Assembly (NCBI GenBank): GCA_047947115.1
Contig: CP170459.1
Span: forward strand, 1,408,001-1,472,000
Direction of reading: 5' to 3'
DNA: 64,000 nt
Source: Verrucomicrobiota bacterium
GTDB taxonomy: Bacteria > Verrucomicrobiota > Verrucomicrobiia > Limisphaerales > AAA164-E04
Below the pieces are notes generated by a model. That model made no database searches. It was not told where the DNA came from and saw only the letters and a program-made list of their open reading frames with translations. The position numbers and the translations under genes were made by a program. Shown piece after piece: positions 3,247 through 10,297 of the stretch (positions within the stretch are counted from its first letter, which is position 1; every line of letters begins with the position of its first letter).

Positions 3247-4695
3247 ATGTCCATTTTTTTTCGATGCATTCCTTGGGTGGTATTGTTGACATCTGTGATG
3301 TCGCCTTTGCTGACAATTGCTTCCGAGAAGCAACCGCATATCGTGTTCATTCTGGTGGATGACATGGGGTATGGCGACTTGAAGTGTTACAACCACAATT
3401 CCAAAATTCTTACCCCGCACATGAACCGTTTGGCGGATGAGGGGATGCGTTTTACGGATGCGCATGCCTCTGGGCCTCTGTGTCATGTGTCGCGATACGG
3501 GTTGATGACAGGGCAGTATCCTTTCCGTGCAAACCCCAACGCCTGGCGCCAACGCGGGACGATTGATGCCGGGCGGGTAACGCTTCCATCTTTTCTTAAA
3601 TCAAACGGCTATCGCACTGCCATGGTGGGTAAATGGCATCTTGGCTTTGATGAAAACGGTTATGATAAACCACTGCCCGGCGGTCCGGTGGATCGAGGAT
3701 TCGATTCGTATTTTGGGATTCGAGCTTCCACGGACATTCCTCCCTATTTTTACATTCGCGATCATCGGGCAGTGGTGCCTCCGACCAGCCGCATCGAGGC
3801 CAACAACAGTGAGGGATGGTCACCGATTCAGGGTGCTTTTTGGAGAGAGGGTGGCATTGCTCCGGGATTGGAGCTCAAGGATGTGTTGCCGAAGTTCACC
3901 GATGAAGCCGTTCGCACGATTGAGTCGCACGCTTCGGTTCAGCATGAGAAACCCCTGTTCCTGTATTTGGCTTATCCTGCCCCTCACACTCCCTGGTTGC
4001 CTTCGAAGGAGTTTCAGGGGAAGAGTGAGGTCGGAATGTACGGGGATTTTACCATGATGGTGGATGCCATGGTGGGACGTGTGTTGAAGGCTTTGGATGA
4101 TACGGGCATGGCTGGAGAGACCATGGTCGTTCTCAGTTCGGATAACGGTCCGGTCTGGTATGGGGAAGACACCCGGAGATTCGGTCACGATTCCTGTGGA
4201 GGCTTGCGTGGCATGAAAGCGGATGCGTGGGAGGCTGGGCATCGCATGCCGTTCGTCGTGCGATGGCCGGGCAAGGTGCGGCCCGGTTCTCAAAGTCAAC
4301 AAACGATCAGTTTCGTGGATATGTTGCCTACGGCAGCGGAGCTTGTCGGCAAAGAGTTGCCGAATGGAGCCGGTCCAGATGGGGTCAGTTTTTTCAAGGT
4401 CTTGACCGGGCAACAGCCCGAGGGTGTTGCGATCAGGGATTCGTTGGTGGTTCCTTCGGGCAACGGAACTTTGACCCTTCGCAAAGGCCCCTGGAAATTG
4501 ATCAAAGGGCTCGGATCGGGTGGTTTCACGAAGCCCGCCAGAGTGCAGTCCAAGCCCGGTGAACCTGCCGGACAGTTATATCATCTGGACCAGGATTTGT
4601 CTGAGAGCAACAATCTTTATCTGCAGCATCCGGACGTTGTCAAAGAAATGGAAGCCATGCTCGAGCAGATCGTATCAGGTCCCGACAACATTTAG
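3247..4695 (+). CDS. Arylsulfatase (formylglycine-dependent S1 sulfatase), secreted
   Basis: Signal peptide, PHIVFILVDDMGYGD, LCHVSRYGLMTG, GKWHLG, PHTP, SSDNG. Confidence 0.9.
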   Translation: MSIFFRCIPWVVLLTSVMSPLLTIASEKQPHIVFILVDDMGYGDLKCYNHNSKILTPHMNRLADEGMRFTDAHASGPLCHVSRYGLMTGQYPFRANPNAWRQRGTIDAGRVTLPSFLKSNGYRTAMVGKWHLGFDENGYDKPLPGGPVDRGFDSYFGIRASTDIPPYFYIRDHRAVVPPTSRIEANNSEGWSPIQGAFWREGGIAPGLELKDVLPKFTDEAVRTIESHASVQHEKPLFLYLAYPAPHTPWLPSKEFQGKSEVGMYGDFTMMVDAMVGRVLKALDDTGMAGETMVVLSSDNGPVWYGEDTRRFGHDSCGGLRGMKADAWEAGHRMPFVVRWPGKVRPGSQSQQTISFVDMLPTAAELVGKELPNGAGPDGVSFFKVLTGQQPEGVAIRDSLVVPSGNGTLTLRKGPWKLIKGLGSGGFTKPARVQSKPGEPAGQLYHLDQDLSESNNLYLQHPDVVKEMEAMLEQIVSGPDNI

Positions 4696-5054
4696 TCTGC
4701 TGATTCTCTGTCTCTCATAATCTTCACTCCGACATAGCTTGTGTTGGGGAGAATGAATTTTTTGATTTCGATTTGCACTCCGGCGATTGAATATCGGTCC
4801 AGAATCCAGTCGGCAATGTTCGAAGCCAGGGTTTCGATGAGTTTCCATTCCCGTGCCTGTCCCCATTGGATGAGTGATCGGGTCAGTTCACCGTAATCGA
4901 CCGTATGTTGGACATCATCAGTCCGGGCCGCTTCCTTGAAATCCGTGAAGAGGCGAATCGTGATCAACAGTTTCTGAGGGTTGGCTCTTTCGGCATCGGG
5001 GACTCCAATACAAAAGGATGCTTCCAGGTCATTGATTTCGATGATGTCGTTCAT
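4692..5054 (-). CDS. folB: Dihydroneopterin aldolase
   Basis: IGVPDAER..PQ, TVDYG, LIETLA, IKKF motifs; 120 aa. Start ATG overlaps the upstream TGA (ATGA). Confidence 0.9.
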   Translation of the reverse strand: MNDIIEINDLEASFCIGVPDAERANPQKLLITIRLFTDFKEAARTDDVQHTVDYGELTRSLIQWGQAREWKLIETLASNIADWILDRYSIAGVQIEIKKFILPNTSYVGVKIMRDRESAD

Positions 5055-6145
5055 GGTTTTTGACAGGAATGGTTTCGGAGGACTTCTTCGATGAGTATGC
5101 GTGTGGGTTGGTTCAGTTCCATGTTCAAAGCCTCGGCAGGCTTGATCCAACGAAAGGATTGTGCCTCGTCATTGAGTGTGACTTCCGGTGGTTCGTTCAG
5201 GCATTGGCAAGTGTAGTTCATCAGCAGGAAGTGGGCGTCTTTGTAGAACTCCTTCGGTGATATGGCGTCCTGGACCATGATGAATTCGATGGAACCGACG
5301 GTTAAGGCGGTTTCTTCCATGATCTCGCGATGGAGTGCATCTTCGGAAGATTCTCCGGTATGAATTTTTCCCCCGGGAATGCCCCATTTGTCCGACCACT
5401 TTTGGGTGCGGATCATCAGGACTTCGCCCGCTTGATTATAAATCAAGGCGCCCACTGTGGGGATTGGGTAGGGGGAATCCGACAGGGAATTTGCGGATCT
5501 CGCAGATTCAAGCGGATTCATTCGGGTTTTTTCCATCAAGGATTTGAGTTCCCCTAGGTGTTCGACGATCAATTCGGGACGGCTGGCCTGGAGCGCCTTC
5601 AGTCCTTTGAAACCGGTCAAGACCGCACAGGCAGCGACACCGCCGTGGTGAGCGGTTTCGATGTCGTGTTCCATGTCACCGATGTAGAGTGTTTCCTCGG
5701 GTTTCAGCTCGTGTTCTTTGATGATTTCATGGATCTTTTTGCGTTTGTCCCATACGCCGGTGTAGGATTGTTCAAAGTAATCTCCAAACCCTGACAGTTC
5801 GGTATGTACCTCGAAGTGTTGAGGGTGAATGGCGCTCAAGACAAAAGAGCGGATATCCCGTTCGCGGCAAAATGAAAGGAATGACTTCGAATGCGTCATG
5901 GGGCGGACGGTGTGCTGTTCCGCAGAGAATGCTTCGTGAAACCATCGTTCGAGCTGTTCGATGGGGACATGGGGAACGTAGCGGTCATAAAACCCCGTGA
6001 ATGGCAGTTCGAATTCGTCTCTGAACGCTTCCAGTGACAGGGCCGGAACGTTCGCTTTTTCGAATACCTTGCACGTGGCGCGCCACACTGCCGGAAGATC
6101 ATCCATCAGGGTGCCACACCAATCGAATATGATATTTTTGATCAC
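5051..6145 (-). CDS. HAD-family hydrolase / Nudix hydrolase fusion
   Basis: N-terminal IIFDWCGTL and YIGDMEHD (HAD); C-terminal Nudix box PGGKIHTGESSEDALHREIMEETAL. GTG start at 6145 inferred. Confidence 0.85.
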   Translation of the reverse strand: MIKNIIFDWCGTLMDDLPAVWRATCKVFEKANVPALSLEAFRDEFELPFTGFYDRYVPHVPIEQLERWFHEAFSAEQHTVRPMTHSKSFLSFCRERDIRSFVLSAIHPQHFEVHTELSGFGDYFEQSYTGVWDKRKKIHEIIKEHELKPEETLYIGDMEHDIETAHHGGVAACAVLTGFKGLKALQASRPELIVEHLGELKSLMEKTRMNPLESARSANSLSDSPYPIPTVGALIYNQAGEVLMIRTQKWSDKWGIPGGKIHTGESSEDALHREIMEETALTVGSIEFIMVQDAISPKEFYKDAHFLLMNYTCQCLNEPPEVTLNDEAQSFRWIKPAEALNMELNQPTRILIEEVLRNHSCQKP

Positions 6146-6252
6146 CGCCGTGGAGTCTAAGGCAGGATTTGTTAAAATCAAATGATGAAGCATCGGGTGG
6201 ATATTTGGTTTCCTTGGCGGAAAAAAAGCTTCAACATGGGGAGGAAGTTATC

Positions 6253-7587
6253 ATGAATGGCAAATTTGGATTGGAACTGGCGATTATCTGCCTGTTGATT
6301 TTGGCGAACGGCTTGTTCGCCATGGCTGAAATGGCCATTGTGTCCGCACGCAAATCGAGATTGCGTCGATGGGCTCGCGACGGTGTCAAGGGGGCTCAAA
6401 CCGCCCTGGATCTGGCGGCGTCTCCCAATCGGTTTCTTTCCACCGTGCAGTTTGGGATTACCTTGATCGGTATTCTGGCGGGAGCTTTTGGTGGTGCAAC
6501 GATTGCCACGACTGTCTCCGGATGGGTCGAGCAAAGCCCTCAGCTGGCTCCTTATGCAGACAAGATTGGATTCGGTATCGTGGTGGTGTTCATCACGCTG
6601 GCCTCACTGATTTTTGGGGAAATACTGCCCAAGCGCATGGCCCTGGCCCAGGGAGAAAAGATTGCCTCGACCCTGGCCCCCATGATGCACGGGTTATCCA
6701 TCATAGCTTCGCCGTTCGTGAGCTTTGTGGGGTGGGTGATCGAGATCACGTTGAAACTTTTGGGTGTCGAGACACATCAAGACAGCTCGGTCAGTGAGGA
6801 AGATATTCGCGTGATGGTGGAGCAGGGATCTCATGCCGGGACCTTTCACAAAGCGGAAATCGAACTGGTGGCCAGTGTCATGCGACTGGACGAAACGCGG
6901 ATCGTCGATATCATGCTGCCTTGTGCCCAGATGGTTTGTCTGGAAACAACGGATCGTGGGCAGGTTCTCAACGAAAAGATTGCCAAGGCAGGCCGCTCCT
7001 ACTTTCCACTCAAGGATGCTTCCAACGGTCAAATACTTGGTCTGATTTCCCTGCGCAATTTATGGGCTCGGTATAGCGGAACAGCACCGGAAGAAATTGA
7101 TCTTAAGGCAGTGGTCAGTACTCCGTTGATCGTGCCCGAGTCCACGCATGTGGTGAAACTTCTTGAAGCGTTCAAGCGATCGGTCTGGCATGCGGCTTTG
7201 GTGGCGGATGAGTATGGGGAGATCACCGGGATGGTGTCGATTTTGGATGTGATGGAAGCGATTGCCGGGGATTTCTCGCACCTCCAGGAAGAGACATTCA
7301 CGCGACCCAAACAACTCAAGGACGGGGCTTGGCTGGCAGACGGACTGACGGATGTGGAAGATGTCGTCCGGTGCATTTCTCCGGACCGTCCCTTGCCCGT
7401 TCCTCCGGGTAAATATCATACCATTGGAGGCATGGTGGTGACTGTTTTGGGAAGGATTCCGGAGGAGGGAGATCGCATTCCCTGGGAAGACTTCTGGATT
7501 GAAGTGGTCGACATGGATCGAAATCGAATCGATAAACTCAGAATTACCAGAGGCTCGAATGGGTCCGGTGAGGGACATGTGTCCTGA
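6253..7587 (+). CDS. Hemolysin-family (CNNM/DUF21-CBS-CorC) membrane protein
   Basis: NGLFAMAEMAIVSAR, GEILPK, DEYGEITG, VVDMDRNRIDK. RBS GAGGA before ATG 6253. Confidence 0.9.
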   Translation: MNGKFGLELAIICLLILANGLFAMAEMAIVSARKSRLRRWARDGVKGAQTALDLAASPNRFLSTVQFGITLIGILAGAFGGATIATTVSGWVEQSPQLAPYADKIGFGIVVVFITLASLIFGEILPKRMALAQGEKIASTLAPMMHGLSIIASPFVSFVGWVIEITLKLLGVETHQDSSVSEEDIRVMVEQGSHAGTFHKAEIELVASVMRLDETRIVDIMLPCAQMVCLETTDRGQVLNEKIAKAGRSYFPLKDASNGQILGLISLRNLWARYSGTAPEEIDLKAVVSTPLIVPESTHVVKLLEAFKRSVWHAALVADEYGEITGMVSILDVMEAIAGDFSHLQEETFTRPKQLKDGAWLADGLTDVEDVVRCISPDRPLPVPPGKYHTIGGMVVTVLGRIPEEGDRIPWEDFWIEVVDMDRNRIDKLRITRGSNGSGEGHVS

Positions 7588-7630
7588 GGGGAAAGAGGCA
7601 ACCTCACCCAGACTTTGACCTGAGTAAACT

Positions 7631-8854
7631 ATGCCGAAATCAATCAACATCCACTGTGAATCACAGTTGAAGGAGATCCGTTCCCAAGGATTGTATCGAC
7701 AACAACGCACGGTGGAGACGGCGCAGTCGGCCTTGATCCGAATGGACGGATCGGTCGTTCACAATTTTTCGTCGAACGATTATCTCGGTCTGGCCAACGA
7801 TCCTCTGATGAAGGATTGCCTTCGAAAAGCTGTCGAATCCTACGGTGTGGGATCGGGAGCCTCGCCTCTGATTTCTGGTGCTCTGCAGCCCTTGCATGAT
7901 CTGCAACGGGACATCGCCGTGTTGAAGGGCACCGAGTCGGCGCTGGTTTTTAGCACCGGATATGCAACCGCCACCGGAACCCTTTCCGCACTTTTTGGAC
8001 GAAACGATATTCTGATACTCGACAAACTCAGTCATGCGTGTCTGGTGGACGGAGCCAAGATGAGCCAGGCTAAATTGCGCATTTGCCGTCACAACGATGT
8101 GAAAGATTTGGAAAAACTACTGCAATGGGCATCCGTAGAAATGAGCCGTCGAGCTGAAAATGAACGTGGTCACATCTGTGTTGTTTTGGAAAGTGTTTAT
8201 TCCATGGATGGAGATTTGGCTCCGCTTGAGGCCTGTGTCCGTTTGAAAGAGCTATACGGAGCCTGGTTGATGGTGGACGAAGCTCATGCCACTGGAGTGT
8301 TGGGGCAACGCGGTGAAGGATTGGTCGGTTCGTTAGGATTGAGTGAGCGTGTTGAAATTCAGATGGGGACTTTAGGTAAAGCCCTTGGTTGCTCGGGTGG
8401 ATTTATCGCCGGTTCAAAACCGTTGATCGATTTGTTGATCAACAAAGCCAGATCCCTCATTTTCTCGACGGCCCCCTCTCCGTCAATATTGGCGACGGCA
8501 AGAAGCGGGATTGAGATAGGTCGTTCCACAGAAGGGCAAACTCGACGGAAATGCCTGTTCGGTCTTGTGGATGCATTTTGGGATGAAGTTCCGCCGGCAT
8601 GGCGTGATCACATTGGGCAAGGGAGCAAGCCCGTTACGCCCATTATCCCCTGGCATGTGGGAGATGCTGTTGTTGCGGTGCGTTTATCCGACGAGTTGAA
8701 AGGTGAGGGGTATTTTGTGCCCGCCATACGCTTCCCCACCGTCTCACGGAACAGCGCTCGGCTTCGAATCACTTTAACCGCGTCTCATACGGTGGAGTCC
8801 GTTCGTCATCTGGCTCGCGTGGTGGTCAAATGCCATGGCAAATTGAAACAATGA
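7631..8854 (+). CDS. bioF: 8-amino-7-oxononanoate synthase
   Basis: FSSNDYLGL, SMDGD, VDEAHATG, GTLGKALG, AIRFPTV. Confidence 0.92.
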   Translation: MPKSINIHCESQLKEIRSQGLYRQQRTVETAQSALIRMDGSVVHNFSSNDYLGLANDPLMKDCLRKAVESYGVGSGASPLISGALQPLHDLQRDIAVLKGTESALVFSTGYATATGTLSALFGRNDILILDKLSHACLVDGAKMSQAKLRICRHNDVKDLEKLLQWASVEMSRRAENERGHICVVLESVYSMDGDLAPLEACVRLKELYGAWLMVDEAHATGVLGQRGEGLVGSLGLSERVEIQMGTLGKALGCSGGFIAGSKPLIDLLINKARSLIFSTAPSPSILATARSGIEIGRSTEGQTRRKCLFGLVDAFWDEVPPAWRDHIGQGSKPVTPIIPWHVGDAVVAVRLSDELKGEGYFVPAIRFPTVSRNSARLRITLTASHTVESVRHLARVVVKCHGKLKQ

Positions 8855-8866
8855 ACTAATCAAATC

Positions 8867-10297
8867 ATGCATCCAATAGCCAAAAAAGATCATCAACATA
8901 TATGGCATCCATTCACTCAGATGCAGGACTGGTGCAAAGAAGAGCCCATCGTAATCATGAGTGGGAAGGGCGCCGAGCTCGAAGATCAGCATGGTCGGCG
9001 TTATCTGGATGCCAATGCGTCCATTTGGACGAATCTGCATGGTCACGGTCATCCGCGGATCAATCGGGTGATTCGCCAGCAACTCGGAAAGATTGCGCAT
9101 TCTTCTGCTCTGGGGTTGGCCAATGAGCCGGCCTCCTTGCTGGCGGAACAACTCGTTCGCAACGCGAATCCGGCGAAGTTGTTCCGAAAGACATCGTCTT
9201 CATGGAAGCAGTCAAAGTTGAACAAAGTGTTCTACTCCGATGACGGGGCCACCGCGATGGAGGCTGCATTCAAACTTGCCTACGAACACGCGCGACGCAG
9301 CGGGCGCAGCAGGAAACCGAAGTTTCTTTCCATCGACCATGCGTATCATGGTGATACGATCGGAGCGGTGAGTGTGGGGCAGGTCGATTTGTTTCATCGT
9401 TCTTTTGCCGGTCTTTTGTTTCCAACCGACAAAGTGATGTCACCTTATTGCTATCGATGTCCCTTTAACCGGGCCAAGCCGGACCGGGCGGAAGCCAGGC
9501 TAGGCCGAAAATGCCAGTGGGAATGCATCGGTAAAATTGAGAAACGATTCGAGGCGATTGATAAGAAAAAGCAGGCCTATGCCGGTTTTGTGTTTGAGCC
9601 CGTCATTCAAGGCGTGGCGGGCATGATCGTGCAACCCAAGGGATGGCTGGAGCGAGCGGCGACCATTGCGCGGCAGGCCCGGACACCTTTGATTGCGGAT
9701 GAAGTCATGACCGGATTCGGACGGACGGGATCCCTGTTCGCCTCGCATCAGGAAAACGTGCAACCCGATTTTCTTTGCCTGGCCAAAGGGATGACCGGAG
9801 GTTATCTGCCCATGGCGGCCACGCTGACGACTCAGGTGGTTTATGATAGCTTTTTAGGCCCCTACGACTCTTATAAGAGTTTTTTTCATGGCCACAGTTA
9901 CACCGGAAATCAATTGGGTGCTGCGGCTTCGTTGGCCAGTCTTGAATTATTGAAAGCGCCCGGCGCCGCCGTATTGCGAAAGGGATTGGCGTGCGATTTC
10001 AAGGAAGCATTGGATGGTCTGTGGGAATCACCGTTTGTGGGGGACGTGCGTCATACGGGGTTGGTGGCGGGTGTCGAGCTGGTGCGCGACTGGAAGACCC
10101 GATTGCCTTGGGACTTGAAAAAACAGGTGGGAATCCGGGTCTGTCGCGAAATGGCGGATCGCGGTGTGTTGACCCGTCCGATTGGGAATCTTATTGTGCT
10201 GATGCCGCCGTATTGTTGTTCGACCCGGCAGGTTCGAAAAATGGTGGATGTCCTGAAGCAGTCCATCGATGCTGTTCTGGGCAAGCAACGGATTTGA
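8867..10297 (+). CDS. bioA: Adenosylmethionine-8-amino-7-oxononanoate aminotransferase
   Basis: IWHPFTQM, YHGDT, ADEVMTGFGRTG, AKGMTGGYLP, FFHGHSYTGN; directly follows bioF. Confidence 0.93.
   Translation: MHPIAKKDHQHIWHPFTQMQDWCKEEPIVIMSGKGAELEDQHGRRYLDANASIWTNLHGHGHPRINRVIRQQLGKIAHSSALGLANEPASLLAEQLVRNANPAKLFRKTSSSWKQSKLNKVFYSDDGATAMEAAFKLAYEHARRSGRSRKPKFLSIDHAYHGDTIGAVSVGQVDLFHRSFAGLLFPTDKVMSPYCYRCPFNRAKPDRAEARLGRKCQWECIGKIEKRFEAIDKKKQAYAGFVFEPVIQGVAGMIVQPKGWLERAATIARQARTPLIADEVMTGFGRTGSLFASHQENVQPDFLCLAKGMTGGYLPMAATLTTQVVYDSFLGPYDSYKSFFHGHSYTGNQLGAAASLASLELLKAPGAAVLRKGLACDFKEALDGLWESPFVGDVRHTGLVAGVELVRDWKTRLPWDLKKQVGIRVCREMADRGVLTRPIGNLIVLMPPYCCSTRQVRKMVDVLKQSIDAVLGKQRI

Follow-up and report, generated by a model that had tools for sequence, protein, structure and literature searches.

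The window analysed here is a stretch of 64,000 nucleotides from the genome of a Verrucomicrobiota bacterium (contig CP170459.1, positions 1,408,001 to 1,472,000), and the subject of this analysis is a gene on its minus strand that joins an N-terminal HAD domain to a Nudix domain directly ahead of folB, the gene for dihydroneopterin aldolase (Table 1). An earlier note, made from the sequence of this DNA, had described the fusion and the overlap of its stop codon with the folB start, and had proposed that one protein could carry out both dephosphorylation steps that lead from dihydroneopterin triphosphate to the FolB substrate. The description holds: in a single open reading frame, residues 5-175 match Pfam HAD_2 (E 9.7e-20) and residues 229-349 match NUDIX (E 4.9e-21), and stop and start share an ATGA, through which the two genes may be translationally coupled. 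An alternative in-frame ATG lies at 6193, 16 codons upstream of the GTG start, and a scan for promoters and terminators gave a signal no better than chance. The source genome is a single contig of 6.08 Mb, and its closest relatives are Verrucomicrobiota of the Pedosphaera type. The folB product matches PF02152 (E 2.2e-26) and passes the folB model TIGR00525 (75.3 bits, cut-off 72.15), while its score with the FolX model (46.6) is below the cut-off of 152. Residues E22, Y54, E74 and K99, which we take to be the counterpart of the catalytic set of Staphylococcus aureus FolB, are present in this protein and in 21 of 21 FolB domains found in fusions.

Table 1. Features of the HAD-Nudix and folB locus, in window positions.
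Feature	Position	Strand	Basis or remark
HAD-Nudix fusion gene	5051-6145	-	364 aa; GTG start at 6145
folB, dihydroneopterin aldolase	4692-5054	-	120 aa; sole copy in genome
ATGA overlap, fusion stop and folB start	5051-5054	-	sequence
HAD domain with C1 cap, residues 1-206	5528-6145	-	Pfam HAD_2, structure comparison, Foldseek
Motif I, D8-W-C10-G-T-L-M-D15-D16	6098-6124	-	nucleophile Asp8 kept; Cys10 at general-acid position; Asp16 at +8
Motif IV, G156-D-M-E-H160-D161	5663-5680	-	sequence; His co-occurs with loss of general-acid Asp
Nudix domain, about residues 225-355	5081-5473	-	Pfam NUDIX; phmmer against PDB
Nudix box, G259-X5-E265-X7-R273-E-I-M-E277-E278-T-A-L	5303-5371	-	pattern as given in part of PMC5389931

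The neighbourhood of the two genes is conserved among relatives. At the loci taken from GTDB genomes, folB lies directly downstream in 15 of 15 Verrucomicrobiota and the flanking genes vary between lineages; at a 16th locus, where a record titled Saccharibacteria has a match to the HAD alone, there is no folB downstream. Among 121 genomes of the same order, the HAD-Nudix family gene was found in 119 and folB in 117. In 108 of these 119 genomes the two stand together, folB following on the same strand at a distance of no more than 400 bp (98 of 102 full-length matches, 7 of 12 HAD-only matches and 3 of 5 partial ones); in the remaining 11, folB is on another contig (six genomes), 2.2 and 6.1 kb away (two) or without a match (three). 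At 80 metagenome loci, read with a FolB profile built from the window protein's own clade, folB is downstream in 54 of the 67 that fall in the near branch, the contig is too short in 10 and there is no folB in three, which leaves 54 of 57 with downstream room.

In a sample of 301 genomes from the whole phylum, a HAD orthologue (E < 1e-40) is present in 33, and folB is present in all 33 of them. The match spans the HAD domain alone in 27 of the 33. Of 30 loci read at this level, six have a HAD-Nudix gene beside folB (that of the window included), 20 have HAD and FolB joined in a single frame, two have a HAD gene beside folB, and two have no folB within 1.5 kb. The single-frame form accounts for the Akkermansia muciniphila 'HAD hydrolase-like protein' (ACD05284.1 and WMB14511.1), a HAD-FolB fusion at two of these loci. 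Two other genomes (G308 and G380) encode HAD, Nudix and FolB as a triple fusion in one frame, and among 40 longer representatives chosen from the 150 best clusters at 50% identity there are six triple fusions and 15 HAD-FolB fusions without a Nudix domain. HAD is thus a more constant partner of FolB than Nudix is. The conservation of the fusion next to folB, which the earlier note had named as a check, is borne out by these in-frame forms as well as by the same-order genomes. Clustering and fusion with folate genes is also a feature of the FolQ/NudB class. A search for stand-alone Nudix-FolB fusions returned members of this clade only, and the 252-255-aa matches that might be taken for such fusions start part-way through the Nudix domain, as truncated triple fusions. 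In one protein (P0129) an Smr domain is fused ahead of HAD-Nudix, which may be a read-through artefact. Two genomes of an Akkermansia-type genus (G102 and G255, genus g6) are without the HAD-FolB fusion and have kept FolK, and G102 is also without FolE2; these absences could be signs of pterin salvage or of incomplete assemblies.

Neither kind of in-frame fusion forms a single clade. An approximately unbiased (AU) test on a 53-row HAD tree rejects monophyly of the triple fusions (7 rows, p 0.0026), and likewise that of the HAD-FolB fusions (18 rows, p 0.0067); the tree was a quick LG+G4 one, and the groups were set by architecture, though after an earlier tree was known. This indicates more than one event of fusion or splitting in the history of the link to FolB, and the result fits repeated fusion and fusion followed by splitting equally, so that the two cannot be told apart. 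An earlier HAD tree of 123 rows from a quick search had too low a resolution for the order of events. Repeated in-frame fusions are stronger evidence for the folB link than the adjacency counts.

A single-sequence prediction of the fold gave a predicted local distance difference test (pLDDT) score of 38.7, too low to use, and an alignment-based AlphaFold2 model was used instead; this has a mean pLDDT of 92.9 and two folded domains, with a low-confidence linker at 220-223. The modelled HAD domain consists of a Rossmannoid core and a helical C1 cap, as expected of a C1-cap member of the HAD superfamily, and it aligns to 2ah5 over 204 residues (VIA-align Z 25.1, root-mean-square deviation (rmsd) 2.0). 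What is unusual is motif I, where a canonical HAD phosphatase has an Asp two residues past the nucleophile and the window protein has Cys. The earlier note had flagged this DWCGT motif and suspected that the domain might be atypical or inactive. The replacement is real; it is not peculiar to this protein. In a set of 120 homologues, 112 of which cover motif I, the general-acid position is Ser in 105, Cys in seven and Asp in none, and among 122 cluster representatives with a readable motif, 118 have DWSG and none has the general-acid Asp. Because the replacement occurs in all 112 homologues, it is a trait of the family and decay of motif I in the source genome alone is excluded. The other HAD motifs are invariant: the nucleophile D8 is kept in 112 of 112 homologues, and S104, K134, G156, D157, H160 and D161 in 120 of 120.

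Loss of the general-acid Asp goes together with two other residues. From the phylum sample, 60 weaker HAD matches were compared (one spurious pattern-match row having been removed). All 47 with Asn at +2 (DW/FNGT) have an Asp at +8 and the motif IV His (GDxxHD), while neither residue occurs in any of the 13 with canonical DxDGT. In the window protein's own clade, the +8 Asp is present in 232 of 237 and the motif IV His in 213 of 216. In beta-phosphoglucomutase, another C1-cap HAD, the +8 residue T16 is described in part of PMC7608592 as a hinge residue that lines the active site and contacts a ligand bound there. We infer from this co-occurrence that the acid/base function has been rewired and that the site is not dead. 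Motif II His107 and cap Glu44 were considered as substitute acids and set aside, since they are absent from the Akkermansia-type and other folB-linked members.

These residues bear on the question of whether the HAD domain does anything for folate at all. The Nudix domain alone might serve the pathway, with the HAD being weak, inactive or a general phosphatase that travels with folB, and with other enzymes taking the last phosphate. The missing general acid in every homologue would fit this, as would the occurrence of the wider HAD subfamily without folB and the absence of this HAD from most of the phylum. Such a passenger would, however, hardly be expected to stay with FolB where Nudix is missing, as in the 20 in-frame HAD-FolB loci and the 15 Nudix-free cluster representatives, or to keep its nucleophile, Mg ligands and motif III Lys invariant while two further positions co-vary with the lost Asp; we regard it as unlikely.

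By structure, the nearest relatives of the HAD domain are C1-cap HADs of the phosphoglycolate phosphatase or COG0546 type (2ah5, 3sd7, 3mc1 and 2nyv; Z 22-25, rmsd 2.0-2.7, about 205 residues), with which it shares the nucleophile Asp and motifs II-IV. It differs from them in having DW[S/C]GT for DxDGT, the Asp at +8 and the motif IV His. Databases label these proteins 'phosphoglycolate phosphatase', despite scores with the three NCBIfam models for phosphoglycolate phosphatase (Gph) far below the cut-offs (41 against 225, 37.9 against 368 and 32.3 against 180). Phosphonoacetaldehyde hydrolase (phosphonatase) is matched by profile at E 4e-9. It is an active C1-cap HAD that also does without the second Asp (DWAGT motif), and it uses a Schiff base formed by a cap Lys. 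The window HAD family is unlike it in this respect, for the homologue alignment has no invariant cap Lys in residues 17-80.

The likeness to phosphoglycolate phosphatases raises the possibility that the HAD acts after FolB, which would cleave the monophosphate directly and leave the HAD to clear the resulting C2 compound, glycolaldehyde phosphate or phosphoglycolate. Archaeal aldolases of another family that use the monophosphate are described in part of PMC5041015, and one distant HAD relative (L070) sits directly behind a RuBisCO large-chain gene. This is the least probable of the alternatives considered here: the FolB of the window passes the ordinary folB model and keeps E22, Y54, E74 and K99, and the family lacks the invariant cap Lys that the phosphonatase Schiff-base route would require.

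The Nudix domain has the fold and the GX5EX7REUXEEXGU box of a Nudix hydrolase, the final Gly being Ala here and variable across the family, and the catalytic positions of the box are kept in 119-120 of 120 homologues. The intact box is shared with NudB of Escherichia coli, FolQ of Lactococcus lactis and AtNUDT1, the Nudix dihydroneopterin-triphosphate pyrophosphatases. FolQ was also found through the same type of evidence, the tie of its gene to folate genes, according to part of PMC1971073. Unlike these enzymes, the window domain is fused behind a HAD and its closest solved relative is NudI (phmmer against PDB, E 1.7e-9). NudB and the Lactococcus enzyme sit in separate parts of the Nudix tree in the part of PMC5389931 that treats them, and low similarity to NudB is therefore compatible with the same activity. 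A fusion of pyrophosphatase and FolB has already been published as a prediction, namely the FolQ-FolB of Parachlamydia sp. UWE25 in Table 2 of PMC1971073; the description given in that part of the paper mentions no HAD, which sets it apart from the window family.

Given that NudI and MutT-type proteins are the best matches to the Nudix domain, by family and by structure alike, the fusion could instead be a nucleotide-sanitising pair, a triphosphatase with a nucleotidase, that owes its place ahead of folB to inherited gene order. Distant relatives of the HAD are found in genomes that lack FolB, and other HAD-Nudix fusions (P0236 and P0248) fall outside the folB-linked branch of the tree. Inherited order would nonetheless leave unexplained why FolB was repeatedly joined in frame while flanking genes differ between lineages, and the source genome has six further Nudix genes; we consider this account improbable.

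The genomic context points to a need for both phosphate-removing steps. The source genome encodes FolE2, one FolK, FolP and one FolB, and no FolE. In the part of PMC5041015 dealing with these enzymes, the PTPS-III motif ExxHGH marks a bypass of FolB and CxxxHGH marks QueD; the sole PTPS of the genome has the QueD motif. With FolE2, FolK, FolP and FolB and without a PTPS-III bypass, the genome should therefore need both dephosphorylation steps between the triphosphate and dihydroneopterin. The relevant parts of PMC1971073, PMC4161248 and PMC5372827, in agreement with the earlier note, assign the first of these steps to Nudix enzymes and leave the last phosphate to a non-specific phosphatase. 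Co-distribution with FolE2 was considered as a further indication and dropped as not specific, since FolE2 is found in 114 of the 301 genomes and FolE2 has no match in one genome (G004) that carries the fusion.

On this evidence the Nudix domain would make dihydroneopterin monophosphate and the HAD domain would remove the last phosphate for FolB, a reading to which we give a probability of roughly 0.55. FolE2 would produce dihydroneopterin triphosphate, from which the Nudix domain would release pyrophosphate to leave the monophosphate; the HAD domain would then hydrolyse the monophosphate by way of a Mg-dependent phospho-Asp8 intermediate, in a reaction where His160, Asp16 or both would stand in for the absent general acid/base Asp, and dihydroneopterin would pass to the co-translated FolB, which would release glycolaldehyde. 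The HAD need not be exclusive for dihydroneopterin monophosphate. The fusion protein would thus most likely function like FolQ or NudB plus a phosphatase, yet it lies outside the NudB and Gph equivalogs and the canonical DxD phosphatases. The proposal of the earlier note is partly supported: the two-domain architecture is real, but it is one arrangement of several, the HAD-only form being the commoner in the phylum sample, and by score the Nudix domain falls outside NudB.

A variant in which the HAD cleaves phosphoanhydrides (dihydroneopterin tri- or diphosphate, or the pyrophosphate released by Nudix) in place of the final ester would explain the lost Asp, for a good leaving group requires no general acid, and it would explain HAD-FolB fusions that lack a Nudix domain. 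The structural matches include a HAD pyrophosphatase, and in four of five genomes tested, the source genome included, no Family I soluble pyrophosphatase was found. All five of those genomes have a membrane H+-pyrophosphatase, however, and hydrolysis of the phospho-Asp would still require a base. Moreover, the fusion partner FolB takes the fully dephosphorylated pterin, and the same HAD is retained where Nudix is present. We think this variant quite unlikely, less so than a nucleotide-sanitising pair.

Several findings weigh against the two-step reading. Regarding the chemistry, part of PMC8069645 gives the second DxD Asp as the standard acid/base of HADs, D10N variants of other HADs have been crystallised with substrate bound, to go by the titles of PDB entries, and the proposed acid/base swap is drawn from the co-occurrence of residues in essentially two clades. 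Regarding the Nudix domain, its score with the NudB equivalog NF006961 is 32.4 against a cut-off of 103, and it is nearer to NudI and MutT; a Nudix orthologue was not found in the 27 HAD-only genomes of the phylum sample, at up to six candidates scored per genome (five such genomes that were tested have 2-7 other Nudix matches each). The same Nudix clade is also fused behind a tetrapyrrole-methylase-family domain (PF00590, RsmI-like) in G420 (L053:3087-4214) and P0322. Regarding distribution, folB is present in 244 of the 268 phylum-sample genomes that lack the HAD orthologue, so that the pathway in general does not need this HAD, and the adjacency counts are not independent because kin share gene order.

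The remaining points of this kind concern more distant relatives. In the distant DWSGT branch, which includes one named Woesearchaeota protein, folB, sought with the same FolB profile from the window protein's clade, is present at none of 13 loci, eight of them with room for it, and no folate family was found among 36 neighbours scanned from nine such loci. Absence of linkage between homologues and folate genes, which the earlier note had said would refute its idea, therefore applies to this branch and not to the one in Verrucomicrobiota. The alignment profile matched 15 of 151 genomes of the Saccharibacteria phylum, and 12 loci were read (three DW[S/C]G, three DWNGT and six canonical), of which the three DW[S/C]G genes alone were counted. 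The small, incomplete genomes that carry these three have no FolB match; FolB is matched in just six of the 151 genomes. The DWNGT sister family, at 20 loci, has no folate family among 41 flanking genes, and was for this reason rejected as a partner of folB where the window HAD is absent. In a further family (f8), a LOG-family gene precedes the HAD, which is not beside folB. As the distant branches are not linked to folate, the substrate of the whole subfamily is a different or a broader one. The window HAD is most plausibly one branch of this older and wider HAD subfamily, recruited to folB in this lineage.

A few observations on these relatives may be added. HADs with DW/FNGT (L147-L226) are common in Verrucomicrobiota lineages that lack the DWSGT clade, and their neighbours are varied. 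At two f8 loci (L063:4554-6727 and L064:4041-5759) the HAD stands one or two genes behind the LOG/lysine-decarboxylase-family gene, opposite a homocysteine methyltransferase-MTHFR fusion. The arrangement behind the RuBisCO gene (L070:2-1235) hints at a phosphoglycolate phosphatase in that distant DWSGT branch. In G420, there is no match to the window HAD at E 1e-20, and folB converges on a NagD-type HAD gene (L054:4553-5530).

Around the locus itself, the folB stop overlaps that of a convergent sulfatase gene (3247-4695, plus strand) at 4692-4695. Divergent from the fusion gene, at 6169-10297 on the plus strand, lie a CNNM/CBS/CorC-HlyC transporter gene and two aminotransferase genes, the first of class I/II (BioF-like) and the second of class III (BioA-like). 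This block is also found upstream in near relatives (for example L001-L006, L008, L010 and L013) and not in others (L011, L012, L014 and L015). Some 8 kb outside the window (G000:C1:1480320-1480853), a third protein with a pterin-binding domain, atypical and DHPS-like, is encoded, in addition to FolP and methionine synthase.

A bolder proposal, which we put forward as no more than a tentative possibility, is that the DW[S/C]GT HAD is a phosphatase dedicated to dihydroneopterin monophosphate and the first gene assigned to that step. It would come from a large unstudied subfamily (DW[N/S/C]GT-x2-DD ... GDxxHD) in which the His160/Asp16 pair replaces the general-acid Asp, and the triple fusions would take the triphosphate to 6-hydroxymethyl-dihydropterin in one chain. 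We found no account of the HAD-Nudix family, or of an assigned monophosphatase, in the open-access literature, subscription papers and supplements (including the SEED fusion table of PMC1971073) lying outside the scope of the search.

The family offers a named and purifiable candidate for a step that is drawn as a 'non-specific phosphatase' in the three papers cited for it above. The culturable gut bacterium A. muciniphila has this candidate too, as a fusion with FolB whose annotation goes no further than HAD hydrolase or phosphoglycolate phosphatase. Should its role be confirmed, the Nudix half would be a further lineage-specific FolQ, and the co-varying Asp/His pair bears on how a widespread HAD subfamily could act without the textbook general acid.

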